64,000 nucleotides of DNA. Origin: Patescibacteria group bacterium (GTDB lineage Bacteria; Patescibacteriota; Microgenomatia; JAMCZE01). A model generated the notes under the pieces. The model made no database searches. It was not told the DNA's origin and worked only from the letters and a program-made list of their open reading frames with translations. The position numbers and the translations under genes are program-made. Location: NCBI GenBank assembly GCA_023380635.1, contig JAMCRP010000001.1, positions 22,613 to 86,612 of the forward strand, read 5' to 3'. Each line of letters starts with the position of its first letter. Positions within the stretch are counted from its first letter, which is position 1. Below, piece by piece: positions 3,759-49,453 of this stretch.

Positions 3759-4235
3759 ATGGAAATTAGTTTAAGTAAAGGTGACATAAAAATTAAAGGA
3801 AAAAATTCCCCGGCGTTAGTCAGTAATGCCAAGTTATCGGTGGGGGAGTTTGTTGTCCCCGGGCCGGGAGAGTTTGAAATTAACGGGGTGGATGTGGTCG
3901 GGGTGGCGGTCGATTCCCGGACGATCTACCGGGTCAATGTTGATAATGTTTTAGTAGTCTATCTGGATAACCTGGATCGGAAACTGACTGAGCAGGAGAG
4001 TAATCAAATTGGGCCGGCGAATGTTTTGCTAATTCCGGTGGAGACTCTCAGTGCTGACGCGGCCGCGGAAGTGGTTGCCCAACTTGAGCCCCAGATAGTG
4101 GTGCCCATCGGAAACAGTGAAAACCGGGCAAAATTTTTGAAACAAATGGGGACAGAACAGGCTGTCGCCCAAGCGAAACTAGTTACTTCTGCCGAAAAAC
4201 TGCCGGAGACCACGACAGTAGTCGTACTTGAATAA
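3759..4235 (+). CDS. Hypothetical protein; weak resemblance to a degenerate metallo-beta-lactamase-fold fragment; translationally coupled to dnaB
   Basis: 158-aa ORF whose stop abuts the dnaB ATG at 4236. No HxHxDH motif, so if MBL-like it is inactive. Confidence 0.4.
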   Translation: MEISLSKGDIKIKGKNSPALVSNAKLSVGEFVVPGPGEFEINGVDVVGVAVDSRTIYRVNVDNVLVVYLDNLDRKLTEQESNQIGPANVLLIPVETLSADAAAEVVAQLEPQIVVPIGNSENRAKFLKQMGTEQAVAQAKLVTSAEKLPETTTVVVLE

Positions 4236-5561
4236 ATGGCCGATCCCAAAATTCCTCCTCATAGCCTGGAGGCAGAACAGTCTGTCCTCGGGGCAATATT
4301 AATTGACAAAAATGCCATTGTCGAAGTGGCCGGTTTTTTGCGCCCCGAGCATTTTTATGAAGACCGCCACGGACAAATTTTCTCGGCGATGCTGGCCCTT
4401 TACGAAGAACGTCGCCCGATTGATCTTCTGACTTTAACCGAAAAACTGAAAGGCCTGAAAACCTATAAAGATGTCGGCGGCTCAACCTATCTGACGGAAC
4501 TGACGGCCGTGGTTCCCACTTCGGCTCATGTGGAAGAGTACGGCAAAATCATCCGGGAACTTTGTGCTAAACGCCAGCTTATAGCGGCTTCGGCGGCTGT
4601 GACCGAACTTTCCTTTGATTCCGGAAAAAATCTGCAGGATGTTTTGGACCAGGCGGAATCAAAAATCTTTAGCATTTCTCAGGAGAACCTGGAGCGCAAT
4701 TTTGTTTCAATGAAAGATATTCTGACCCGGAGTTTTGACCGGCTGGATGAGATTCAAAAGCGAGGAGCGGGTCTTCGGGGAGTGCCGACTGGCTGGAAAG
4801 ATCTGGATGATGTGTTAGCCGGGTTTCAGGAAAGCAATTTGGTCATTCTGGCGGCTCGGCCCGGCATCGGTAAAACAGCTTTTCTGTTAAACATCGCTCA
4901 GCATGTGGCGGTGAAGGAAAAAATGCCGGTGGGGGTCTTTTCCTTGGAAATGAGCCAAGAGGAACTGGGCGACAGGCTCTTGGTCATGCAGGCCGGTATC
5001 GACGCCTGGAAACTCAAGACCGGAAAACTGGACGATGAGGATTTAGACAAACTGCAGGACGCGATGGGAGTTTTGGCTGAAGCCCCCGTTTTTATTGATG
5101 ACACGCCGGGCATAACTCTCATGGAAATGCGCACCAAAGCGCGCCGGCTCCAGATGGAACACGGATTAAAACTACTGTTAGTAGACTATTTGCAACTGGT
5201 TAACCCAGGACGCAGTCTCGAGTCCCGGGTCCAAGAGGTGTCAATTGTTTCCCAGGCTCTAAAAAACCTCGCTAGAGAGCTACGCATTCCTGTCATTTCT
5301 GCTTCGCAGTTGAATAGGCAAGTAGAGGCGCGTGGCTCCAAAAAACCGCAACTGGCGGATCTGCGGGAATCGGGATCAATCGAACAAGACGCGGATGTGG
5401 TGATGTTTTTATATCGCGGCGAAGAAACCAAAGACCTGGCCCCGGGAGACAAAATTCCGACTACCTTATCAATCGATAAACACCGCAACGGGGCGCTTCG
5501 CGAAATAAATTACATGTTTAACGGGGCGATGATGCAGTTTAAGCTTTTAGCCAAGACCTAA
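4236..5561 (+). CDS. dnaB: Replicative DNA helicase DnaB
   Basis: N-terminal DnaB domain (HSLEAEQSVLGAIL), Walker A ARPGIGKTAF, SLEMS, Walker B LLLVDYLQL, ISASQLNR and ADLRESGSIEQDAD motifs; 441 aa. Confidence 0.95.
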   Translation: MADPKIPPHSLEAEQSVLGAILIDKNAIVEVAGFLRPEHFYEDRHGQIFSAMLALYEERRPIDLLTLTEKLKGLKTYKDVGGSTYLTELTAVVPTSAHVEEYGKIIRELCAKRQLIAASAAVTELSFDSGKNLQDVLDQAESKIFSISQENLERNFVSMKDILTRSFDRLDEIQKRGAGLRGVPTGWKDLDDVLAGFQESNLVILAARPGIGKTAFLLNIAQHVAVKEKMPVGVFSLEMSQEELGDRLLVMQAGIDAWKLKTGKLDDEDLDKLQDAMGVLAEAPVFIDDTPGITLMEMRTKARRLQMEHGLKLLLVDYLQLVNPGRSLESRVQEVSIVSQALKNLARELRIPVISASQLNRQVEARGSKKPQLADLRESGSIEQDADVVMFLYRGEETKDLAPGDKIPTTLSIDKHRNGALREINYMFNGAMMQFKLLAKT

Positions 5562-5577
5562 GTAGAAAAATATTTTG

Positions 5578-5662
5578 TGGCGCGGGAGGGAGTCGAACCC
5601 TCACAGCCTATTATGGCTACCAGTTTTTGAGACTGGCTTGTCTACCATTCCAACACCGCGCC
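5578..5662 (-). tRNA. tRNA-Leu (anticodon CAA), type II tRNA with long variable arm; CCA not encoded
   Basis: Reverse complement GGCGCGGTGTTGGAATGGTAGACAAGCCAGTCTCAAAAACTGGTAGCCATAATAGGCTGTGAGGGTTCGACTCCCTCCCGCGCCA. 7-bp acceptor stem GGCGCGG/CCGCGCC. Anticodon stem CCAGT/ACTGG with loop CTCAAAA. T-arm GAGGG-TTCGACT-CCCTC. Confidence 0.8.
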
Positions 5663-5725
5663 AAGTATACCTAATTATAGCATTCTTATAGTCTCTCTCT
5701 AACATATAAATCCTATCATTCGAGC

Positions 5726-6172
5726 ATGCCCGAGAAACCGAGTGAGCTGCCAAAAAATCTCAATAAAGCTCAGGAAACTTTCTTAACGCAGAAAACGCCG
5801 CCCCAATATGTCAAAACGCGGCCGGGACCCGGAGGAAAGCCCTTGTCCTATGTAGAAATAGGCTATGTGGTCAACCTGCTTAACCAGGCTTTTGGCTGGG
5901 ACTGGGATTTTCAGATCTGGGAGCAGGAAATCGGCAAAAAACAGGTTTGGGTGCGGGGAGAACTCACGGTCCGGATAAACGATAAACAGATCACCAAAGC
6001 CCAATACGGCGGGGCAGATATCAAGTTTAACCGGGCCACCGGGGAAGCGATTAGCATTGCCGACGATCTTAAAGCCGCCGCCTCCGATTGCCTAAAAAAA
6101 TGTGCCTCGCTTCTTGGTGTGGCCGGGGACATTTACTGGAAGGATCTGGATACTTGGAGCTCCGAAGAGTAG
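5726..6172 (+). CDS. Rad52/Rad22-family single-strand annealing protein (N-terminal annealing domain only)
   Basis: PQYVKTRPGPGGKPLSYVEIGYVVNLLNQAFGWDWDFQI aligns to the Rad52 core LGPEYISSRxGGGxxKVCYIEGxRVINLANExFGYNGW. Downstream GxxxxxxxGEAISIADDLKAAASDCLKKCASLLG matches the Rad52 GVSEG...KEAVTDGLKRALRSFG region; 148 aa. Confidence 0.6.
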   Translation: MPEKPSELPKNLNKAQETFLTQKTPPQYVKTRPGPGGKPLSYVEIGYVVNLLNQAFGWDWDFQIWEQEIGKKQVWVRGELTVRINDKQITKAQYGGADIKFNRATGEAISIADDLKAAASDCLKKCASLLGVAGDIYWKDLDTWSSEE

Positions 6173-6300
6173 ATTTGACGGGTCCTGTCTGCTCGACCAC
6201 CCTTAAGGCGCTCAACCGCTAAGCTTGCGTACTCCAGTAGTCGTGCGCTCGCCGCTCAGTTTCGCGTTTAAGGCATCTGTCTCGCTGCCACCCGTCAAAT
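6173..6300. other. ~130-nt intergenic element closed by a 12-bp inverted repeat (gatttgacgggt ... acccgtcaaatc); candidate structured RNA or attachment-site remnant
   Basis: atttgacgggt at 6173-6183 and acccgtcaaat at ~6289-6299 are perfectly complementary. Interior has imperfect direct repeats (tgtctgctcg / tgtctcgctg; ttaaggcgc / ttaaggcat). No ORF. Confidence 0.3.
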
Positions 6301-6316
6301 CTGATAAAATATAATT

Positions 6317-7267
6317 ATGACGTTGGAAGATATCTATCTGCTGGGTTTAAAAATGGCGATTGCCGCAGATCCCCGTGGCAAGGCGGGGGTGGAGAAATAT
6401 TTGGCCCGTATCAAAAAGGAATATGAAGAACTGCCGGAAAAACAGAAGAAATATTTTGATAAAGAAAACTTAGTTAATCCCTATGTTGACTCCCGGATCC
6501 TTCTTGGTAACAGAAATAAAGTTATTAAAAAAATTTTAGTTGGCATCGATATTTATACTGGTGAAGTAGTTTTGGCAGATCGGCTGGGCGGAGTTGATTT
6601 ATTAATTTCTCATCATCCTGAAGGTGAGAGTTGGTCGGCGCTTCATGAGGTTATGGATTTGAATGTGGATATTTTAGGAAGTTATGGCGTGCCGGTAAAT
6701 GTGGCCGAACATTTGCTGGGCGAGCGAATGGGTGAGGTTCGCCGCCGTATTTCACCGGCCAATCATCAGCAGAATGTTGATGCTGCCAGGCTTTTGGGCT
6801 TTGCGATGATGTGCGCCCATACTTTTACTGATAATTTAGTCTATGACTTTTTAAAGAAATTGTTTGAGAAAGAAAAACCGGAAACCGTTGGCGAAGTCGT
6901 TGATCTTTTGATGACGATTCCAGAGTACCAGGAAGCTACCCGCGGTAAAGCTGGGCCGATGATTTTTGTGGGCGATGCGAAGAAACGGGCAGGTAAGGTG
7001 GCTCCGATTGAGATCACCGGCGGAACAGAAGGGTCGCCGCAAATTTACGAAAAACTGGCCCAGGCTGGAGTAGGGACCATTGTGGGTATGCATGCCTCGG
7101 AGGAACATCGCAAAGAGTCGGAAAAGTATCATGTGAACATGGTTGTCGCCGGGCACATAAGCTCGGATTCGCTAGGCATGAATTTATTCCTTGACGAAAT
7201 AGAGCGTCAGGGTGTACAAATAGTGCCGTGCTCGGGGTTAATCCGGGTAAAGCGTAATAGTAAGTAA
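6317..7267 (+). CDS. Nif3-family (DUF34) dinuclear metal-centre protein
   Basis: ILVGIDIYTGEVVLADRLGGVDLLISHHPE matches the Nif3/YbgI N-terminal motif (GVD..ISHHP). C-terminal VVAGHISSD matches the Nif3 AAGHHATE region; 316 aa. Confidence 0.5.
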   Translation: MTLEDIYLLGLKMAIAADPRGKAGVEKYLARIKKEYEELPEKQKKYFDKENLVNPYVDSRILLGNRNKVIKKILVGIDIYTGEVVLADRLGGVDLLISHHPEGESWSALHEVMDLNVDILGSYGVPVNVAEHLLGERMGEVRRRISPANHQQNVDAARLLGFAMMCAHTFTDNLVYDFLKKLFEKEKPETVGEVVDLLMTIPEYQEATRGKAGPMIFVGDAKKRAGKVAPIEITGGTEGSPQIYEKLAQAGVGTIVGMHASEEHRKESEKYHVNMVVAGHISSDSLGMNLFLDEIERQGVQIVPCSGLIRVKRNSK

Positions 7268-7278
7268 TAGTAAATAGT

Positions 7279-7854
7279 ATGGCCATGATTGGGGTGACTG
7301 AGTTGCGGTCAGGGACCGTCTTCGAGGATCCGTTAGTCGGAAACGGACCTTGGGTCGTGCTTAAGTACGAGCATGTCAAAATGGGCCGGGGAACGGCAAC
7401 CATCAAAGTAAAAATCCGCAATTTAAAAACGGGGACCACGATCGAAAAGGCTTTTATTAACGGGGCTCGGGTTTCCGAGGTAATTCTGGAAAAGAAGCGC
7501 GGGCAGTACCTCTACCGTGACGGTGCCAATTTAGTTTTTATGGAACCCTCAACTTACGAACAGTTTGAGACCCCTCAGGATCTGGTCGGCGAGGCAGCAA
7601 AATTTCTTAAAGAGGGTACCGAGGTAGACCTAAAAATGTATGAAGGCCAAGCGCTTTCCGTCTCCTTACCGCTAAAAATGAAGTTTGAAATTACCGACAC
7701 CGAACCGGGTTATAAAGGCAACTCAGTGACTAATATCTACAAAGACGCGGTTCTTGAAACCGGCGCCCGCATTAAAGTTCCCATGTTTGTTAATCAGGGA
7801 GAAATGGTCGTGGTAAATACCGATTCAGGAGAATACGTCGAACGGGCTAAGTAA
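7279..7854 (+). CDS. efp: Elongation factor P
   Basis: Typical EF-P N-terminus (ELRSGTVFEDPLVGNGPWVVLKYEHVKMGRGTATIKVKIRNLKTG), three OB/KOW-like domains, 191 aa. Confidence 0.9.
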   Translation: MAMIGVTELRSGTVFEDPLVGNGPWVVLKYEHVKMGRGTATIKVKIRNLKTGTTIEKAFINGARVSEVILEKKRGQYLYRDGANLVFMEPSTYEQFETPQDLVGEAAKFLKEGTEVDLKMYEGQALSVSLPLKMKFEITDTEPGYKGNSVTNIYKDAVLETGARIKVPMFVNQGEMVVVNTDSGEYVERAK

Positions 7855-8369: not shown

Positions 8370-9668
8370 TTGGGCCCGTATTTGGGGCCTAATATTTTGC
8401 TTAAGATGGCCCGGGCTTTGAAGAATATTACTTTTTTTCAAGTTCTGAAGATCGATGCCTTTCGTAACCTCTGGCTTTCCCAACTGCTATCTCAGGTGTT
8501 TTTAAATCTGCTCTTTTTCTCCCTCATGATCCGAATTTATGAAATTACCCGGAGCAATTCCGCCGTTTCGGTTGTTGTCCTGCTGGTGACAATCCCTAAC
8601 ATTTTTTTGGGAGCCTTAGCCGGCGTTCTGGTAGACCATTGGGGGCGCAAGCCGGTAATGTTTTTCTCCCATTTCCTGCGCGTTCTGGCGGTGCTGGCGT
8701 TTCTGGTCTCGGCAGAAACAATTGGCTGGCTTTACTCCCTGGTTTTTTTAATTAGTATTATTACCCAGTTTTTCTTCCCGGCGGAAGCGGGAACGATCCA
8801 TGAAGTGGTTAAGGATCAAAAACTCCTCTTAACGGCTAACAGCCTTTTTTCCGTGACTTTTTTTGCTTCGGTAATTGTGGGTAATGTTTTGGCCGGACCG
8901 TTTCTGCAGCTTTTCGGGCCGCAGTGGACATTCATGGTCGTGGCGATGGCTTTTTTAGTTGCCTCGGTTTTCACCAGCAGACTTCCGGGAAAACCGGTTT
9001 GGGAATTTACTCAAACCCACCGGGAATTGGATTTTGCCAAACTTTTCAGCGACTTTCTGGTAGGTTTGGATTATCTTTATCATAATCCGGTTGTCCGGCG
9101 GGGAATTTATCTTTTAGGAGCCTCTCAGATTACCATCGGGATCCTAGGGGTCATTGCTCCGGGGTTTGCAGACCAGGTTTTACATTTGCCGGTCACAGAT
9201 GTTTCGCTTTTGGTCATGGCTCCGGCGGCCGCCGGGATGGTATTGGGGGCGGTTTCCATCGGTCAATTTATGGGTGGCTTTAAACGGGAAAACCTGATTC
9301 AGGGCGGCTTTTTAGCGGCAGCGCTGGTCTTGATAATTTATTCTCTGGTGGATAAATTGGCTGGCCCGACGGGTTTACCGGTAATTCCGATCAGTCTGGT
9401 AATTCTTCTGACCCTTGGTTTTACCAATGCTTTTTTAGATATTCCGGTCAACACCTTAATTCAGGAAAATACGCCTCCCGAGATTCGCTCCCGGGTTTAC
9501 GGAGTAGTTTCTTCAGTGATTGGTCTGGCCGGAGTGGTGCCGATTGTCCTGTCCGGAGCCTTGGCGGATGTTATCGGCGTACGGTTTGTGATGATGTTTA
9601 CCGGCATAATCCTTTTGATCCTGGCGATAAAGTATAATAGAGAAACTTATGCTTCCAGTTCTTCTTAG
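8370..9668 (+). CDS. MFS-family transporter
   Basis: About 12 hydrophobic helices, MFS-like GxLxDRxGRKP motif (GALAGVLVDHWGRKP); 432 aa. Start possibly at the internal Met at 8406. Confidence 0.7.
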   Translation: MGPYLGPNILLKMARALKNITFFQVLKIDAFRNLWLSQLLSQVFLNLLFFSLMIRIYEITRSNSAVSVVVLLVTIPNIFLGALAGVLVDHWGRKPVMFFSHFLRVLAVLAFLVSAETIGWLYSLVFLISIITQFFFPAEAGTIHEVVKDQKLLLTANSLFSVTFFASVIVGNVLAGPFLQLFGPQWTFMVVAMAFLVASVFTSRLPGKPVWEFTQTHRELDFAKLFSDFLVGLDYLYHNPVVRRGIYLLGASQITIGILGVIAPGFADQVLHLPVTDVSLLVMAPAAAGMVLGAVSIGQFMGGFKRENLIQGGFLAAALVLIIYSLVDKLAGPTGLPVIPISLVILLTLGFTNAFLDIPVNTLIQENTPPEIRSRVYGVVSSVIGLAGVVPIVLSGALADVIGVRFVMMFTGIILLILAIKYNRETYASSSS

Positions 9669-10680
9669 GGTCGGCCCGGTCACTATTTACAGCTTTGGGG
9701 TTTTTTTAAGCCTGGCGGTTCTTTTGGCCTCATTTCTGGTTTGGAAGCAGGCCCGCAAAAAGGGTCTGCCGGAAGAAAAAGTTTTCGACACTTTTATTTT
9801 AACCATTTTTGTCGCCATAATCTTTGCCCGGCTGGGCTATGTTTTTTCCCACTGGGAGGTGTTCGGGGCAGATCCGTCGCGGATTTTTCTGTTTAATCAT
9901 TACGCCGGGCTGTCTTTTCCCTGGGGTTTTGCCGGAGGATTAGTCGCCGCCATGGTAAGCTCGCACATTTTAGAATTGGAAAGCCTTCTGATTCTGGATT
10001 ATTTTGCTCTGGCTTTCTCCTGGGCGGTTACCGTCGGCTGGGCAGGGTGTTTTCTTGACGGTTGTTTGGTGGGCGCCCCGAAATATCTTCTCCCGGCAAT
10101 GCTGGTTATTTTTGCCGCCATTGCCGCACTCCTTTTGGCTCTTAACTATAAAATTAATGCTAGCCCCAAATTGGTTGATTTAGCGCGTCGCCCCGGGCTT
10201 TTTATGTCTTCCTACTTGATTTTTTTCCTGAGTTCATTTTTAATACTTGGTGAAGCTACTGGCAGCGCGGAAAAGGTTATTTACCTGGCGATAATTGCTG
10301 TTAGCGGCATTGTCTTTATGGTCAAGTTTCCTGCATCGGTATTAAAACAGATTAAAACCTACCTCGAAGAGAAACACCGCGACGCGGAACACCGGCTGCA
10401 TGATCTTAAAAAAGAAGATCCGTTCGCGGATAATTCCCGGCTCTTGGATCGGGCATCGGAGGATACGGAAGCAGCAGCCAAGGCCGGACATGAACGCGTC
10501 GCCGCCATGCAACAGCAATTAAACCTCGTGATGGTTTCGACCCGCAAGGCTCTGACAAAGATTAAAATCGGTAAATACGGCATCTGCGAAGGCTGCGGCA
10601 AGATGATTGATACGGACCGTTTGGCCGCTATGCCGACAGCCACCCTTTGTTTATCCTGCGAAAAGAAGCGGGAGCGCTAA
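9649..10680 (+). CDS. Fusion protein: Lgt-like (prolipoprotein diacylglyceryl transferase family) membrane domain + C-terminal DksA/TraR C4 zinc-finger domain
   Basis: N-terminus VGPVTIYSFGVFLSLAVLLASFLV...IFARLGYVFSHW resembles Lgt (IGPVALHWYGL...GGRIGYVL). Lgt signature G-R-x-G-N region is degenerate (GWAGCFLDGCLVG). C-terminus RKALTKIKIGKYGICEGCGKMIDTDRLAAMPTATLCLSCEKK is a DksA/TraR CxxC-x17-CxxC finger; 343 aa. Confidence 0.55.
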   Translation: MLPVLLRVGPVTIYSFGVFLSLAVLLASFLVWKQARKKGLPEEKVFDTFILTIFVAIIFARLGYVFSHWEVFGADPSRIFLFNHYAGLSFPWGFAGGLVAAMVSSHILELESLLILDYFALAFSWAVTVGWAGCFLDGCLVGAPKYLLPAMLVIFAAIAALLLALNYKINASPKLVDLARRPGLFMSSYLIFFLSSFLILGEATGSAEKVIYLAIIAVSGIVFMVKFPASVLKQIKTYLEEKHRDAEHRLHDLKKEDPFADNSRLLDRASEDTEAAAKAGHERVAAMQQQLNLVMVSTRKALTKIKIGKYGICEGCGKMIDTDRLAAMPTATLCLSCEKKRER

Positions 10681-31772: not shown

Positions 31773-33761
31773 TTAGTTTTTTAAATCAATAAAACAGTTA
31801 GAGGTACAACGGTCGGAAATGTTACTCCCCACCACTGTACCATAGACATCGCCCCCTTGCACCTGCCACCAGGGGGGCGGTACCACCTGGATATTGGCCG
31901 TGGTGGCTGAGCACTGGGAGCCGCCGTTAGTTAAGGTGGCCGTGGCGCTAATGTTGGCCGTTTGGGGGCTGGTGACTTTGACGGCCGAAACGATGGCCGT
32001 GGGGTTAGCCGACGGGTCATCGACAGTAATGGCCCCAGTATTGGAAGAAACCCAGTTAATTGAACTAACCGTGGCCGGGCCGGTAATGACCGGAATAGCC
32101 GTAATGCTCCCCTTTCTGTTGAAGTAGAAGGGATTAGGAATGGTAGGGTTTAAAGTCAGGGTACAGGTGGGACTGATAACGGTGATGGGGGCTGTTACCG
32201 GGGTGGAAGCGGTGCAAGTTCCTCCCCCGACAGCCAGGGTGGCTGTCACCGTTACCGTCGTGCTGCCGGCGTAGTTGGCGTGAATGGTGGCCGGGTTGGT
32301 GGTCGGAGTGGTAATCGTGGCGGCGGCCCCGGAGGTCGGGGTCCAGGAAAAAGTCGCGGCCTGCCCGGCAGGAAGAGTGTTTAAAGTCGTGGAAATGGTG
32401 CGATCCTGACTGACATAAAAAGTGCCGGAAGGACTTAAAACCGGGGTGGTTAAAGTGCAGGTAGGGGCCGCGACGGTGACACAAACAGTGTTGGAACAGG
32501 TATTGGTTCCGGGAGAAAGCGGGGCTGAGGCCGTAAAGCAGGTTTGGCCCACGGTCGTCGCACTGGCCCGGATAGTTACAGTACTACCAGTCGTCCCTCC
32601 GGTAAAGTCAGCTGAGGTTCCGGAAGTCCGGGTCCAGGTAATCGTTCCCAGCGTACCGCCGCTGGCGGCAAAATTAGCCGTCAAAGTCCCGGTGTTACCT
32701 AACTGAAAGGGGCTAGGAACATTCGTGGAAATGGTATTGCTAGCGCAAGTGGCCGGAGCCGGAGCGGAAACGGTGATTTGTTTAGCACTGCCGAGGCCAC
32801 AATAGCTCCAGCCGGTGGGATACCCAAAAGGGTTACCGGTGCACCGGCCGTAAGACGCGGCGGAGTTCACCCGGTTGTAGCCTTGGCAATAAACCCAGTA
32901 GGTCCCGGGATTTTGGAAAGTAAGTTGGGTGTTAACGGGGTTAGTCAGTTTAAGGCTGGTATTGGTGGTACTGCCGACCGTGCCATAGGGGCCACTGGCA
33001 TTGTTAGTGGAAGTGGGGCTGGTCCACAGATCGATCATGGTAGCCCCGTTAGCCGGGGTGTTAGTAAAAGTAACCGGCGTGCCGGTAGTGGCTGTTGCCG
33101 GTCCGGACACGGTGCAGGTGGGGTTACAGTAGACAGGCTGGTTACAGGCATCAGCACAGTTACTGATTTCGTTACAGGAACCAGCCGGAACACAGGAACC
33201 GTCAGCCGGGACCCAAAGACATTGTCCCCAGGCAACATCGCCATATTGCTGTAAAGTGGGGTCGCTGTGGACGGCCCGGGGCGGGCTGCCGGGATTGTTG
33301 TAAATATCCTTACACATGGCTTCAGTCCCCACATTTTCCGGCAAAAGGCAAACCGGGGTCCCGTTTAGGTCCAAGGGGTCGCGCCATTCGTGGTTTAAAT
33401 TTGTTCCGGCCGGCGGGCAGGATAGCCCGCTGCAGCCTGCAGAAGGTTGTAAAGTGCATTTTCCGGTACAAACACTGGTCGTGCCGCTACACATTTGCTT
33501 AGCTTCGGTATTAGTATCGCAGTAATAGATTTCTTGACCGCAGAAAGCATTTCCAACAGTACACTTAGAGGAAATTTGAACCCAACCTCCATTAGTAGAA
33601 CAGCCACTGCCGTAATATTCTCCACCAGAACAGGAGTCACAAGTCCAACTTGAGTAACTTTGAAATTGGCAGCCGGCAAGCACGATATTTTTAGAAAAGA
33701 GAAAAAGAAAGCCTATCAATACAAAGGCAAATATAGCTAAAACTAACCGGCGAAGAGCCAT
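31773..33761 (-). CDS. Large secreted Cys- and Thr/Ser/Gly-rich surface protein (paralog A of the gene at 47477-49453)
   Basis: N-terminal TM/signal, Cys-rich N-domain, long Thr/Gly/Ser-rich Ig-like repeats with PTCTLT junctions, conserved C-terminus PPPWWQVQGGDVYGTVVGSNIS; 662 aa; residues ~94-428 identical to paralog B. Confidence 0.6.
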   Translation of the reverse strand: MALRRLVLAIFAFVLIGFLFLFSKNIVLAGCQFQSYSSWTCDSCSGGEYYGSGCSTNGGWVQISSKCTVGNAFCGQEIYYCDTNTEAKQMCSGTTSVCTGKCTLQPSAGCSGLSCPPAGTNLNHEWRDPLDLNGTPVCLLPENVGTEAMCKDIYNNPGSPPRAVHSDPTLQQYGDVAWGQCLWVPADGSCVPAGSCNEISNCADACNQPVYCNPTCTVSGPATATTGTPVTFTNTPANGATMIDLWTSPTSTNNASGPYGTVGSTTNTSLKLTNPVNTQLTFQNPGTYWVYCQGYNRVNSAASYGRCTGNPFGYPTGWSYCGLGSAKQITVSAPAPATCASNTISTNVPSPFQLGNTGTLTANFAASGGTLGTITWTRTSGTSADFTGGTTGSTVTIRASATTVGQTCFTASAPLSPGTNTCSNTVCVTVAAPTCTLTTPVLSPSGTFYVSQDRTISTTLNTLPAGQAATFSWTPTSGAAATITTPTTNPATIHANYAGSTTVTVTATLAVGGGTCTASTPVTAPITVISPTCTLTLNPTIPNPFYFNRKGSITAIPVITGPATVSSINWVSSNTGAITVDDPSANPTAIVSAVKVTSPQTANISATATLTNGGSQCSATTANIQVVPPPWWQVQGGDVYGTVVGSNISDRCTSNCFIDLKN
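32473..33479. repeat. ~1007-bp tract exactly identical to 48177-49183 (offset 15704 bp) within the paralogous surface-protein genes
   Basis: Track ORFs 32422-32706/48126-48410, 32778-33254/48482-48958 and 33035-33334/48739-49038 translate identically. Manual alignment shows exact identity from 32473/48177 to 33479/49183. Flanks are ~80 percent identical on one side and diverge within ~30 bp on the other. Confidence 0.8.
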
Positions 33762-41439: not shown

Positions 41440-41441
41440 TT

Positions 41442-41497
41442 CTTTACTCGCGCGAGTAAAGAAGCAAAAAACCCTGCCCTAACCGGTGGGGTTTTTG
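41442..41497 (+). terminator. Rho-independent terminator(s) after the pilin array
   Basis: Perfect palindrome tttactcgcgcgagtaaa (41443-41460), then aaaaaccctgcc-ctaacc-ggtggggttttt (A-tract, 12-bp stem with two G-U pairs, T-tract), likely bidirectional. Confidence 0.6.
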
Positions 41498-47476: not shown

Positions 47477-49453
47477 CTAGTTTTTCAAATTAATATAGCA
47501 GTTAGATGAACAGGAAGGTGAAATGTTACTCCCCACCACTGTACCATAGACATCGCCCCCTTGCACCTGCCACCAGGGGGGCGGTACCACCTGGATATTG
47601 GCCGTGGTGGCTGAGCACTGGGCACCGCCGGGGGTTAAAGTGGCGGTGGCGGTCACGGCGGCTGTTTGGGGGCTAGTCACTTTGACGGCGGAAACGATCG
47701 TGGTCGGGTCAGCGGCGGGGTTATCGATCGTAATCGCGCCGGGGTTGGAAGAGACCCACTGAACGGTTCTTGACTGGATAGGGCCGGTGACCACAATATT
47801 AGCCGTGATACTCCCCTTGCGGTTAAAGTAAAACGGATTGGGAATGGTCGGACTTAGGGTCATAGTGCAGGTGGGGTTAACCACCGTAATGGGGCTGGCA
47901 ACCGGGGTCGTAGCGGTGCAGGTGTTTCCTCCGACATTAAGCGTGGCGGTGACGGTGACGGCCGTGCTGCCGGCGTAATTAGCGTGGATGGTAGCTGGAT
48001 TGGTTGTGGGGGTGGTAATGGTGGCAGCGGCTCCAGAGGTCGGAGTCCAGGAAAAAGTCGCGGCCTGTCCGAGAGGGTTGGTGGTTAAAACGGAAGAAAT
48101 GCTGCGGTCCTGGCCGGTGTAAAAAGTGTCGGACGGATTTAAAACCGGCGGGGTTAAAGTGCAGGTGGGGGCAGCCACGGTGACACAAACAGTGTTGGAA
48201 CAGGTATTGGTTCCGGGAGAAAGCGGGGCTGAGGCCGTAAAGCAGGTTTGGCCCACGGTCGTCGCACTGGCCCGGATAGTTACAGTACTACCAGTCGTCC
48301 CTCCGGTAAAGTCAGCTGAGGTTCCGGAAGTCCGGGTCCAGGTAATCGTTCCCAGCGTACCGCCGCTGGCGGCAAAATTAGCCGTCAAAGTCCCGGTGTT
48401 ACCTAACTGAAAGGGGCTAGGAACATTCGTGGAAATGGTATTGCTAGCGCAAGTGGCCGGAGCCGGAGCGGAAACGGTGATTTGTTTAGCACTGCCGAGG
48501 CCACAATAGCTCCAGCCGGTGGGATACCCAAAAGGGTTACCGGTGCACCGGCCGTAAGACGCGGCGGAGTTCACCCGGTTGTAGCCTTGGCAATAAACCC
48601 AGTAGGTCCCGGGATTTTGGAAAGTAAGTTGGGTGTTAACGGGGTTAGTCAGTTTAAGGCTGGTATTGGTGGTACTGCCGACCGTGCCATAGGGGCCACT
48701 GGCATTGTTAGTGGAAGTGGGGCTGGTCCACAGATCGATCATGGTAGCCCCGTTAGCCGGGGTGTTAGTAAAAGTAACCGGCGTGCCGGTAGTGGCTGTT
48801 GCCGGTCCGGACACGGTGCAGGTGGGGTTACAGTAGACAGGCTGGTTACAGGCATCAGCACAGTTACTGATTTCGTTACAGGAACCAGCCGGAACACAGG
48901 AACCGTCAGCCGGGACCCAAAGACATTGTCCCCAGGCAACATCGCCATATTGCTGTAAAGTGGGGTCGCTGTGGACGGCCCGGGGCGGGCTGCCGGGATT
49001 GTTGTAAATATCCTTACACATGGCTTCAGTCCCCACATTTTCCGGCAAAAGGCAAACCGGGGTCCCGTTTAGGTCCAAGGGGTCGCGCCATTCGTGGTTT
49101 AAATTTGTTCCGGCCGGCGGGCAGGATAGCCCGCTGCAGCCTGCAGAAGGTTGTAAAGTGCATTTTCCGGTACAAACACTGGTGGTCCCGCTGCACATCT
49201 GTTTGGCTTCTGCCGGACTACCACATTGATAAGTTTGTGAATAGTTACACGATTCTCCAGCACTACAACCGTCATGAATAGTGACACTTGAGTTACTGAC
49301 GCTACATGATCCTCCTACGGGACAGACTCCGCCACCACAAGCAAACCAATCATTAGTCATGGTACAGCCCGCAAAGACTTGGTTGTGCAGAAGAGGAAGA
49401 GTAAAAAGAAGTGATAACCAAATAAAAACAAAAATGGCGACTTTTTGCCCCAC
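47477..49453 (-). CDS. Large secreted Cys- and Thr/Ser/Gly-rich surface protein (paralog B of the gene at 31773-33761)
   Basis: 658 aa; N-terminal hydrophobic segment; central 335 aa identical to paralog A; C-terminal third ~80 percent identical including the PPPWWQVQGGDVYGTVVGSNIS terminus. Confidence 0.6.
   Translation of the reverse strand: MGQKVAIFVFIWLSLLFTLPLLHNQVFAGCTMTNDWFACGGGVCPVGGSCSVSNSSVTIHDGCSAGESCNYSQTYQCGSPAEAKQMCSGTTSVCTGKCTLQPSAGCSGLSCPPAGTNLNHEWRDPLDLNGTPVCLLPENVGTEAMCKDIYNNPGSPPRAVHSDPTLQQYGDVAWGQCLWVPADGSCVPAGSCNEISNCADACNQPVYCNPTCTVSGPATATTGTPVTFTNTPANGATMIDLWTSPTSTNNASGPYGTVGSTTNTSLKLTNPVNTQLTFQNPGTYWVYCQGYNRVNSAASYGRCTGNPFGYPTGWSYCGLGSAKQITVSAPAPATCASNTISTNVPSPFQLGNTGTLTANFAASGGTLGTITWTRTSGTSADFTGGTTGSTVTIRASATTVGQTCFTASAPLSPGTNTCSNTVCVTVAAPTCTLTPPVLNPSDTFYTGQDRSISSVLTTNPLGQAATFSWTPTSGAAATITTPTTNPATIHANYAGSTAVTVTATLNVGGNTCTATTPVASPITVVNPTCTMTLSPTIPNPFYFNRKGSITANIVVTGPIQSRTVQWVSSNPGAITIDNPAADPTTIVSAVKVTSPQTAAVTATATLTPGGAQCSATTANIQVVPPPWWQVQGGDVYGTVVGSNISPSCSSNCYINLKN
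48177..49183. repeat. Second copy of the exact ~1007-bp repeat (see 32473-33479)
   Basis: Same evidence as for the first copy. Confidence 0.8.

Follow-up and report, generated by a model that had tools for sequence, protein, structure and literature searches.

Genes and features of the locus

The DNA analysed here is a stretch of 64 kb, to which we refer as the window. On its plus strand, at positions 5726-6172, lies an ORF of 148 aa, whose product is a predicted Rad52-family ssDNA-binding/annealing protein (Pfam PF04098). The ORF starts 63 nt from tRNA-Leu(CAA), exactly as described in the first-pass annotation. The tRNA is encoded on the minus strand at 5577-5662 (ARAGORN; Rfam tRNA, 56.7 bits), with its 5' end towards the rad52-like gene and its 3' end towards dnaB (4236-5561, plus strand), the gene of the replicative helicase DnaB (Pfam DnaB_C, 8.5e-97; DnaB, 1.8e-35). 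Downstream of the rad52-like gene and on the same strand follow the genes for a NIF3-like (DUF34) protein (6317-7267; Pfam DUF34_NIF3, 28.3 bits) and for elongation factor P (efp, 7279-7854; Pfam EFP_N, EFP and Elong-fact-P_C). The rad52-like gene is probably co-transcribed with the NIF3-like and efp genes. Between the rad52-like and the NIF3-like gene, an orphan foldback element of 132 nt is located (6171-6302).

According to a Pfam scan of approximately 6 kb on either side of the rad52-like gene, the neighbours encode an ABC transporter, an HlyD-like protein, DnaB, the NIF3-like protein and EF-P, and further an MFS transporter, Lgt-DksA, a pseudouridine synthase and a cation antiporter. In this range no integrase, exonuclease or phage gene was detected, which agrees with the earlier description of the gene as lacking such partners. 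The GC content of the rad52-like gene (51%) is host-like when compared to the window mean of 48%.

The Rad52-like protein

Judged by its sequence, the 148-aa ORF product is a member of the Rad52 family, and in this respect the first-pass annotation was right. Residues 17-134 match positions 6-131 of the 153 positions of the profile PF04098 (Rad52_Rad22) with 42.5 bits (E=8e-11; gathering cutoff 20.3 bits), and PF04098 is present in 120 of the 120 homologs listed. TIGR00607 (rad52) gave a partial match only (30.4 bits, cutoff 224.8). The best profile and fold matches are to the N-terminal domain of eukaryotic RAD52 (PDB 1KN0, 1H2I, 5XRZ and 8BJM). In the comparison of the family profile with the PDB, human RAD52 was found with E=1.5e-6, and hhalign placed residues 19-133 on residues 42-161 of human RAD52 with a probability of 93.6%. 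The top nine Foldseek matches in the PDB were all human RAD52 (best E=1.4e-6, probability 1.00), with a TM-score of just 0.36 for the monomer model. The AF2 model (pLDDT 73.9) predicts strands E29-33 and E39-43, helix H45-56, strands E59-69, E73-84 and E87-98 and helix H111-127, which corresponds to the beta-hairpin and beta-beta-beta-alpha fold of the annealing domain.

The protein shares with RAD52 the motif Y-V/I-E...V-I-N-L-x-N-x-x-F-G. In the hhalign alignment, R32, Y42, K124 and K125 correspond to R55, Y65, K152 and R153 in the inner ssDNA groove of human RAD52, and all four are invariant in an alignment of 32 sequences. Over residues 37-94, the human RAD52 sequence used for this mapping is consistent with the PDB alignment. 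However, the identity to RAD52 is 22-32%, and the C-terminal half of RAD52, which interacts with RPA and RAD51, is missing in the Rad52-like protein.

Two other known systems are suitable for comparison. The phage single-strand annealing proteins (SSAPs) such as Sak of the lactococcal phage ul36 share the superfamily with the present protein and are likewise small single-domain proteins (Lopes et al. 2010, PMC2896510). They are encoded in recombination/replication modules, whereas the present gene has housekeeping neighbours and is fixed throughout a clade of bacteria. DdrA of Deinococcus radiodurans is, like the present protein, a cellular and not phage-borne member of the Rad52_Rad22 family, and since DdrA protects 3' ends but showed no annealing in vitro (PMC515370), the term annealase may overstate the activity of the present protein. 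Both genes also stand alone, without a partner exonuclease. The link of DdrA to repair is its induction after damage, while that of the present clade is the neighbourhood of uvrB and lexA. The two proteins belong to different clades in different phyla, and they are likened here by description. DdrA has approximately 200 aa as compared to 148 aa here.

From the analogy to RAD52, Sak and DdrA we infer that the Rad52-like protein may form rings which bind ssDNA in a basic groove. In double-strand-break or gap repair, it would protect 3' ssDNA tails, anneal complementary ssDNA, or do both.

Conservation and genomic context of the rad52-like gene

More than 350 homologous proteins with 65-92% identity were found in Patescibacteria (Daviesbacteria-like). 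At 50% identity, all members of the clade fall into one cluster (290 bits; next cluster 215 bits), and 244 clusters were obtained at E<=1e-30. The conservation is similar to that of EF-P, and the gene is among the most conserved small genes of the clade. Upstream of the gene and in divergent orientation, uvrB is located in 11 of the 21 loci from Patescibacteria genomes, and lexA was found within approximately 4 kb in seven of the 21; uvrA also occurs among the neighbours. A tRNA adjoins the gene only in the nearest relatives (loci L059, L061 and L065). The order dnaB-tRNA-rad52 is common to the window and L065, and the synteny of the rad52-like gene with efp is kept in L059, L061 and L046. Between tRNA-Leu(CAA) and the NIF3-like gene, L059 and L065 contain the rad52-like gene just as the window does, and L075 has an unrelated ORF of 99 aa in this slot. 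The flank upstream of the tRNA contains dnaB in the window and in L065 but mazE/PIN in L059. Thus, the gene order around this slot is fluid.

The first-pass annotation had considered the gene together with the repeat as a remnant or minimal mobile element next to a tRNA. Spelled out, this reading takes the two for what is left of a prophage or small mobile element integrated at tRNA-Leu, with the inverted-repeat element as its att-like site or terminus. Indeed, a lone Rad52-like gene next to a tRNA resembles mobile debris, Rad52-type SSAPs are common in phages, and the protein itself has phage relatives (PHROG 37405, E=7e-31; Polaribacter phage P12002L, 42% identity). The different genes in the slot among related genomes and the variable flank upstream of the tRNA would also be in line with such an origin. 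However, the comparative data correct this reading, which we regard as very improbable and largely refuted: the gene is kept at 65-92% identity throughout the clade, usually beside uvrB/lexA and usually without a tRNA, relatives with the same tRNA-rad52-NIF3 order do not have the element, and the GC content of the gene is that of the host. The geometry is also wrong. Integrases which target tRNA genes place the island at the 3' end of the tRNA. Since the rad52-like gene lies on the 5' (promoter) side, a tRNA-integrated island is disfavoured, and neither an integrase within approximately 6 kb nor a repeat of the tRNA 3' end in the window was found. In a search of the 64-kb window for partial tRNA repeats of the attL/attR type, the best candidate was a 15-nt chance match at a distance of 4.5 kb (E=0.93). 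The arrangement of a phage SSAP module (Sak or Red-beta type), with phage context and exonuclease, SSB or replication partners, was not detected either; the neighbours are housekeeping genes, and in the relatives uvrB, uvrA and lexA. PADLOC gave no match.

We read the gene as a cellular, vertically maintained or domesticated repair gene of a Patescibacteria (Microgenomates/Daviesbacteria-like) lineage. This is close to the domesticated recombination mediator, which had been offered as the alternative to a mobile element, and it agrees with the synteny comparison, in which the gene occurs throughout the clade, mostly at non-tRNA loci, and without the repeat element outside of the window. The ancestral site in the clade would have been beside uvrB and lexA, and in the sub-lineage of the window the gene lies between tRNA-Leu(CAA) and the NIF3-like/efp pair. 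Because phage homologs exist, an ultimate phage origin of the clade is possible.

A conserved CTTAC(C) motif is present upstream of the rad52-like genes and was considered as a LexA box. It was not seen by eye in the upstream regions of four lexA genes, and therefore SOS control is without support.

Sequence and predicted structure of the inverted-repeat element

The element is bounded by an inverted repeat with the left arm AGATTTGACGGGT (6171-6183) and the right arm ACCCGTCAAATCT (6290-6302), between which 106 nt are located. The repeat itself was recognized correctly in the first-pass annotation, but it is perfect over 13 bp instead of 12 bp. By its first two bases, the left arm overlaps the end of the rad52-like gene's TAG stop codon, and the ends of the element contain ATTTGAC...GTCAAAT. 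At the scale of the whole window such a repeat is not unusual: 40% of dinucleotide shuffles hold a perfect 13-bp inverted repeat in 64 kb, and in the window it is the only perfect one of at least 13 bp. For the 147-nt spacer in which it is found, the repeat is far beyond chance; among 20,000 shuffles of the spacer none reached 13 bp, and 0.3% reached 10 bp.

When folded as a whole, the element is more stable than shuffled sequences (z = -3.75 on the plus and -3.89 on the minus strand). The 106-nt interior alone is no better than shuffles (z = 0.0 and -1.5, respectively). The earlier designation as structured is thus justified mainly for the terminal stem, which comprises 14 pairs in the RNA fold including a terminal U-G pair. 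A second helix is formed by CCUUAAGGCG/CGCGUUUAAGG. The imperfect direct repeats that had been noticed inside the element (6207-6267) could be traced, with weak support: the best pair, GCGCTCAACCGCTAAGCTT-GCGT at 6207-6230 and GCGCTC-GCCGCTCAGTTTCGCGT at 6244-6267, has a local alignment score of 19 versus a mean of 12.1 in mononucleotide shuffles (p ~0.0125).

The GC content of the element is 56.8% as compared to the window mean of 48.4%, which places it in the top 8% of window segments. All six frames contain stops or short peptides and nothing protein-like. After the stem no T-run of an intrinsic terminator is present on either strand. A weak -35/-10-like pair, matching in 9 of 12 positions, is located on the minus strand at 6336-6308, just outside of the stem; altogether two promoter-like matches were found, with 1.4 expected by chance. 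A perfect stem (13/13), a GC content of 57% and a weak internal repeat are features that would also be expected of a selected RNA.

Occurrence of the element in relatives and sequence collections

In the alignment with L059, L065 and L046, the window contains approximately 135 extra nt, and the boundaries of this indel coincide with the element. In these three relatives, the stop codon of the rad52-like gene and the ATG of the NIF3-like gene are separated by 9 nt, without the element; in the window, 14 further AT-rich nt follow beyond it (6303-6316). The element is absent from every other rad52-like locus in the approximately 75 related stretches examined. Since it is missing from all other loci with the gene, it is no partner of the rad52-like gene. 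The earlier proposal of an associated small RNA or att-like site thus found no confirmation. An apparent gap in L060 turned out to be a run of Ns and no insertion.

The closest relative shows 92% identity for the Rad52-like protein and 71% for the NIF3-like protein. The NIF3-like protein of the window is 71% identical to that of L059 and 69% to that of L065, while the latter two are 78% identical to each other, which makes the window the outgroup. Judged from these sequences, a gain in the lineage of the window and a single loss in the L059/L065 lineage would both fit.

Searches for further copies returned only the element itself. With nhmmer, the sole match in 58 related loci and in the 64-kb window (approximately 11% of the genome when set against a 559-kb contig with an identical NIF3-like protein, and the part of it that was searched) was the self match, and the same was true for a single-sequence covariance model over 540 kb. 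With the filters off, the covariance model found nothing below E=1.6 in L074-L076. The covariance model also gave a weak match in L056 (E=0.03), which is unrelated to the element: it is a GC hairpin of approximately 40 bp, probably a terminator, that follows the rad52-like gene of this locus. The exact pattern of a 12+12 inverted repeat with a gap of 90-120 nt was found neither in metagenome_contigs nor in viral_contigs, and the left-end 21-mer in metagenome_contigs and the apical 22-mer in viral_contigs were not found either. A relaxed 10+10 pattern had four matches in viral_contigs, which all represent one and the same AT-rich phage coding region; the interior was unrelated, the number is about that expected by chance, and the matches were rejected. 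A blastn search against phages and plasmids in distant mode gave no match. In Rfam 15, no family matched the region 6150-6325 (176 nt) on either strand at E<=10, and between 5400 and 6500 nothing apart from the tRNA was detected. Candidates such as SRP RNA, 6S RNA, 5S rRNA, Y RNA, ribozymes and retron msr/msd have no Rfam support, and for a retron there is in addition no reverse-transcriptase Pfam family among the genes scanned within approximately 6 kb.

Possible nature of the element

We favour, with moderate confidence, the view that the gene and the element are two unrelated neighbours, namely a cellular Rad52 repair gene and a lineage-specific, MITE-like foldback insertion. For the gene, this view builds on what is observed directly: the family membership, the conservation throughout the clade, the synteny and the absence of mobile-element genes. 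For the element, our best guess, which we hold weakly, is a small non-autonomous insertion similar to ERIC or Correia elements and unrelated to the function of Rad52. ERIC, Correia (NEMIS) and RUP elements have a length of 100-160 bp, carry terminal inverted repeats, and form a long imperfect hairpin when transcribed. Their insertion sites lie in transcribed DNA, either intergenic or intercistronic, and at orthologous sites they are present in some relatives and absent from others. In line with this, the element consists of short non-coding DNA between terminal inverted repeats, and it is polymorphic for presence when compared with L059, L065 and L046. However, what defines those families is their occurrence in many copies per genome, and in the case of Correia the duplication of a TA target. 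Here, a single copy was seen in the 64-kb window, 72 related loci and the metagenome, viral, phage and plasmid collections searched; the flanks are TA on the left and TG on the right without a clean duplication, and no matching IS or family member was found in these collections. With approximately 11% of the genome covered by the window, a family of low copy number is possible. Concerning origin and effect, we infer that the element may be lineage-specific DNA in a spacer, formerly of 9 nt, that separates the rad52-like from the NIF3-like gene. If transcribed in the operon, it would fold into a stable hairpin (approximately -50 kcal/mol), which at most would modulate processing or stability of the mRNA.

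Alternatively, the element could be a functional structured RNA, either a small RNA from the minus strand or an intercistronic element in cis (an RNase III site, a stabiliser or a leader of the NIF3-like/efp genes). The perfect 13-bp closing stem with z values of about -3.8 on both strands, the GC content in the top 8% of the window segments, the second helix and the weakly significant internal repeat would all fit such an RNA, as would the position inside a probable operon and the weak promoter-like site just outside of the stem, which would put a minus-strand start at the edge of the stem. Nevertheless we consider this unlikely, since the interior does not exceed shuffled sequences in stability, the promoter-like match (9 of 12) occurs at chance frequency, an intrinsic terminator is missing on both strands, and no Rfam family matches at E<=10. 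Moreover, the nearest relatives lack the element at the same junction, and no homolog was found in any collection searched. Still less probable is a scar of break repair, that is, filler or templated DNA in the spacer without mobility or function, in which the repeat would be a by-product. A single-copy orphan without target-site duplication, with an interior devoid of coding signal and significant structure, in a spacer that differs also by the 14 AT-rich nt at 6303-6316, is what such a scar would look like; yet no donor sequence was found in the window or in the collections searched, and simple filler capture would not be expected to leave a perfect 13-bp terminal inverted repeat.

A site of rearrangement, either an attC-like cassette site of an integron or a small invertible segment, is disfavoured and in our opinion extremely improbable. 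With 132 bp the element falls into the size range of attC sites (57-141 bp), it lies directly 3' of an ORF, and its ends resemble the R''/R' boxes at 6 of 7 positions each. The attC consensus is RYYYAAC...GTTRRRY. However, the nearly invariant AAC/GTT core is replaced here by GAC/GTC, the perfect stem is without the typical extrahelical bases, and the context is not that of an integron, with no intI or other recombinase within approximately 6 kb. In the relatives, the rad52-like gene occupies this position although the site is missing, and therefore the gene is no cassette. Against an invertible switch speaks that no promoter-like site is present inside the segment. On present evidence, the hairpin element is a curiosity with no demonstrable function.

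Implications for recombination in Patescibacteria

To our knowledge, chromosomal Rad52 homologs of bacteria were studied essentially only in Deinococcus (DdrA). RecO is regarded as the functional analogue of Rad52. It is therefore tempting to speculate that the gene is a fixed and vertically inherited core repair factor throughout an entire class of Patescibacteria, ancestrally associated with uvrB/lexA and maybe in the role of RecO/RecFOR, and that, separately, the element is the first member of an undescribed foldback element or RNA of the CPR; we give this far-reaching combination only a small chance. If the protein is the recombination mediator of the clade, this would bear on break repair in symbionts with minimal genomes, and compact annealases of 148 aa could become available for recombineering. 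In the role of RecO/RecFOR, it would be an example, provided by nature in these reduced genomes, of a mediator of eukaryote or phage style that serves the recombination of cellular bacteria. In a full-text literature search joining Rad52 with Patescibacteria or the candidate phyla radiation, no publication was by its title or abstract on the present gene family. In the databases, homologs are already annotated automatically as 'RAD52 family DNA repair protein'.

Rad52-family membership of the 148-aa protein

The rad52-like gene (a 148-aa ORF at 5726-6172, plus strand) is preceded by dnaB (4236-5561, plus strand) and tRNA-Leu(CAA) (5577-5662, minus strand), and is separated by a 144-nt spacer (6173-6316) from the NIF3-like gene (6317-7267, plus strand), which is followed by efp (7279-7854, plus strand). 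The Rad52/Rad22 similarity proposed in the first-pass annotation was borne out, since the protein matches Pfam Rad52_Rad22 with 42.5 bits (E=8e-11), above the gathering score of 20.3. When a profile of 32 homologs was compared with solved structures, only human and yeast RAD52 were matched (E=1.5e-6), and hhalign paired residues 42-161 of human RAD52 with residues 19-133 of the window protein (probability 93.6%). R32, Y42, K124 and K125, the counterparts of the human inner-groove residues R55, Y65, K152 and R153, are invariant throughout the alignment of the homologs. The AlphaFold model (pLDDT 73.9) shows a hairpin, a sheet of three strands and a long helix, as expected; in a Foldseek search of the PDB all nine best matches to this model were human RAD52, with a TM-score of only 0.36. 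The protein is thus a true member of the Rad52 family, for which ring formation and annealing are predicted. Among characterised proteins its nearest analogue is Deinococcus DdrA, a chromosomally encoded homolog of Rad52 which protects the 3' ends of ssDNA (PMC515370).

Conservation and neighbourhood of the gene

Our protein search found 352 proteins, the best 120 of which show 65-92% identity; the few taxon-named ones are labelled Patescibacteria or Daviesbacteria. With library sequences clustered at 50% identity, a single representative (290 bits) stands for the entire clade, the next cluster scoring 215 bits, and the wider family comprises 3067 such clusters. Synteny was compared in 21 Patescibacteria loci from species-representative genomes. 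There the gene mostly stands without a tRNA; uvrB lies upstream in divergent orientation in 11 loci, and lexA follows within a few kb downstream in seven. In Daviesbacteria-like genomes (loci L002-L015, L066 and L068) uvrA is located farther upstream of the uvrB/rad52-like pair. Pfam-annotated examples are L066 and L068, with uvrB at 3934-5901, the rad52-like gene at 6001-6510 and lexA at 11229-11846 in L066. This neighbourhood is gone from the sub-lineage of the window. We conclude that the gene is a conserved, clade-wide cellular gene encoding a Rad52-family protein of an already known type with a predicted role in repair. Among full-text literature pairing Rad52 with Patescibacteria or the candidate phyla radiation, no title or abstract dealt with this gene family, and its clade-wide conservation beside uvrB and lexA is apparently undescribed.

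Two further observations were made in these loci. In approximately 14 of 25 loci a position-specific motif, CTTAC(C), is present 5' of the gene (background 12% per 160 nt), and CTTAG often comes 5-6 nt after it. The CTTAC(C) motif is located 47-55 nt before the ATG in L002, L003, L004, L007, L009, L011, L014, L015, L016, L059, L065 and L068; its counterpart in the window is CTTAT (5685-5689, at about -41). The motif may represent a regulator site or a -35 element of unusual form; by-eye inspection of four lexA upstream regions did not reveal it. Further, many contigs whose proteins are of Patescibacteria type bear the record title 'uncultured Gammaproteobacteria bacterium' (L001, L004, L005, L007-L011, L014, L015, L020, L021 and L046), and one other bears 'Clostridia bacterium' (L018); these are probably mislabelled MAGs.

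The tRNA-Leu(CAA) neighbourhood

The first-pass annotation had read the Rad52-family gene and the repeat behind it as a possible mobile-element remnant at a tRNA. Its observations and the family assignment stood, and we rejected the view of the gene as mobile-element debris. In line with what had been noted from the sequence, the Pfam scan of the neighbours, covering about 6 kb on each side, revealed no integrase, exonuclease or phage gene; there was also no defence-system match around the gene, and a search of the window for a partial copy of the tRNA found none. Islands integrating into tRNA genes are located at the tRNA 3' end. Here the rad52-like gene lies on the 5' side and the 3' end faces dnaB. 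Moreover, among the relatives only the nearest ones (L059, L061 and L065) have the tRNA beside the gene, which together with the clade-wide distribution and the uvrB/lexA context argues against a remnant. The protein has phage relatives (PHROG 37405; Polaribacter phage P12002L, 42% identity), and may be of ancient phage origin.

Though the gene itself is clade-wide, gene order about the tRNA (window 5562-5725) is fluid, and the neighbourhood looks like a rearrangement hotspot. In the related locus L075 (1-480) what separates tRNA-Leu(CAA) from the NIF3-like gene is a 99-aa ORF that is unrelated to the rad52-like gene and has no Pfam match. The other flank is occupied by dnaB in the window and L065, and by a mazE/PIN toxin-antitoxin pair in L059 (3169-3886).

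An orphan foldback element behind the gene

The element in the spacer (6171-6302, 132 nt) had been described accurately, except that its perfect inverted repeat is 13 bp long and not 12 (6171-6183 and 6290-6302, with 106 nt between the arms). A perfect 13-bp inverted repeat arises somewhere in 64 kb in 40% of shuffles, while shuffling the spacer itself gave none in 20,000. The whole element folds with z of about -3.8 on both strands; the 106 nt between the arms, folded alone, show no gain over shuffled sequence on the plus strand (z = 0.0) and only a marginal one on the minus strand (z = -1.5). The structure of the element is thus mainly the terminal stem. It is accompanied by a second short helix around the CCTTAAGG palindrome, and the interior also has an imperfect direct repeat (p about 0.0125). 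The GC content is 57%, compared to a window mean of 48%. We found no coding potential, no T-run of a terminator beside the element and no convincing promoter, and its flanks (TA/TG) show no clean target-site duplication.

In the nearest relatives L059, L065 and L046, whose rad52-like proteins are 92%, 87% and 93% identical to that of the window, the rad52-NIF3-efp order is kept and the stop codon is followed by 9 nt (AATCAKGCT) and the ATG of the NIF3-like gene. The window spacer is longer by approximately 135 nt, and the edges of this surplus coincide with the inverted repeat. Since NIF3-like identity places the window as outgroup to L059 and L065, gain in the window and loss in these relatives are indistinguishable. 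No second copy exists in the 64-kb window, and no relatives were detected in 72 related loci (nhmmer or covariance model) or in metagenome, viral, phage and plasmid collections. The 64 kb searched correspond to about 11% of the genome, judged by a 559-kb contig that encodes an identical NIF3-like protein; on the assumption of evenly spread copies we estimate that a high-copy family, with some 30 copies or more, is unlikely, and a low-copy family may exist. The hairpin element is a real but orphan feature.

The suggestion that the element is a small RNA or att-like partner of the gene did not hold, because no other gene-carrying locus examined has it. Our best guess, weakly held, is an ERIC/Correia-like foldback insertion within the spacer between two cistrons; were it co-transcribed with them, a hairpin of about -50 kcal/mol would result. 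A lineage-specific functional RNA appears unlikely; the search of Rfam matched no family at E<=10. Less probable still is that the element is filler DNA left by repair. We disfavour a reading as attC or invertible site, since the attC core is AAC/GTT, that of the element is GAC/GTC instead, and no recombinase is encoded nearby.

Other repeats and genes

Immediately 3' of the longer rad52-like gene (257 aa) of the Chloroflexi relative L056 is a near-perfect, GC-rich hairpin of approximately 40 bp (2187-2272) followed by CCTTTTCGC; unrelated in sequence to the window element, it is probably a terminator or a REP-like palindrome. The NIF3-like proteins of L059 (4566-4625) and L046 carry a short GC-rich insertion, ...PEKPARGGSAMGGKADFD..., that the window protein (6420-6450) lacks; the insertion has an inverted repeat of its own, GCCCGCCCGAGGCGGGTCCGCCATGGGCGGA. 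In the window, nested repeats of TATACAAAT-like units, inverted as well as direct, form an AT-rich cluster (796-890) that lies either at the end of the ABC-transporter gene or immediately upstream of it and is possibly an operator or origin-like array, and at 41440-41463 there is a perfect 24-bp palindrome, TTCTTTACTCGC directly followed by GCGAGTAAAGAA. Two paralogous ORFs of approximately 660 aa with no Pfam match (31773-33761 and 47477-49453, both minus strand) share 76-86% nucleotide identity across approximately 560 nt (31816-32376 and 47520-48080). Finally, the gene at 9649-10680 encodes a fusion of prolipoprotein diacylglyceryl transferase (Lgt) with a DksA/TraR C4 zinc finger at the C-terminus, which is also called in the relatives L059, L065, L074 and L075.
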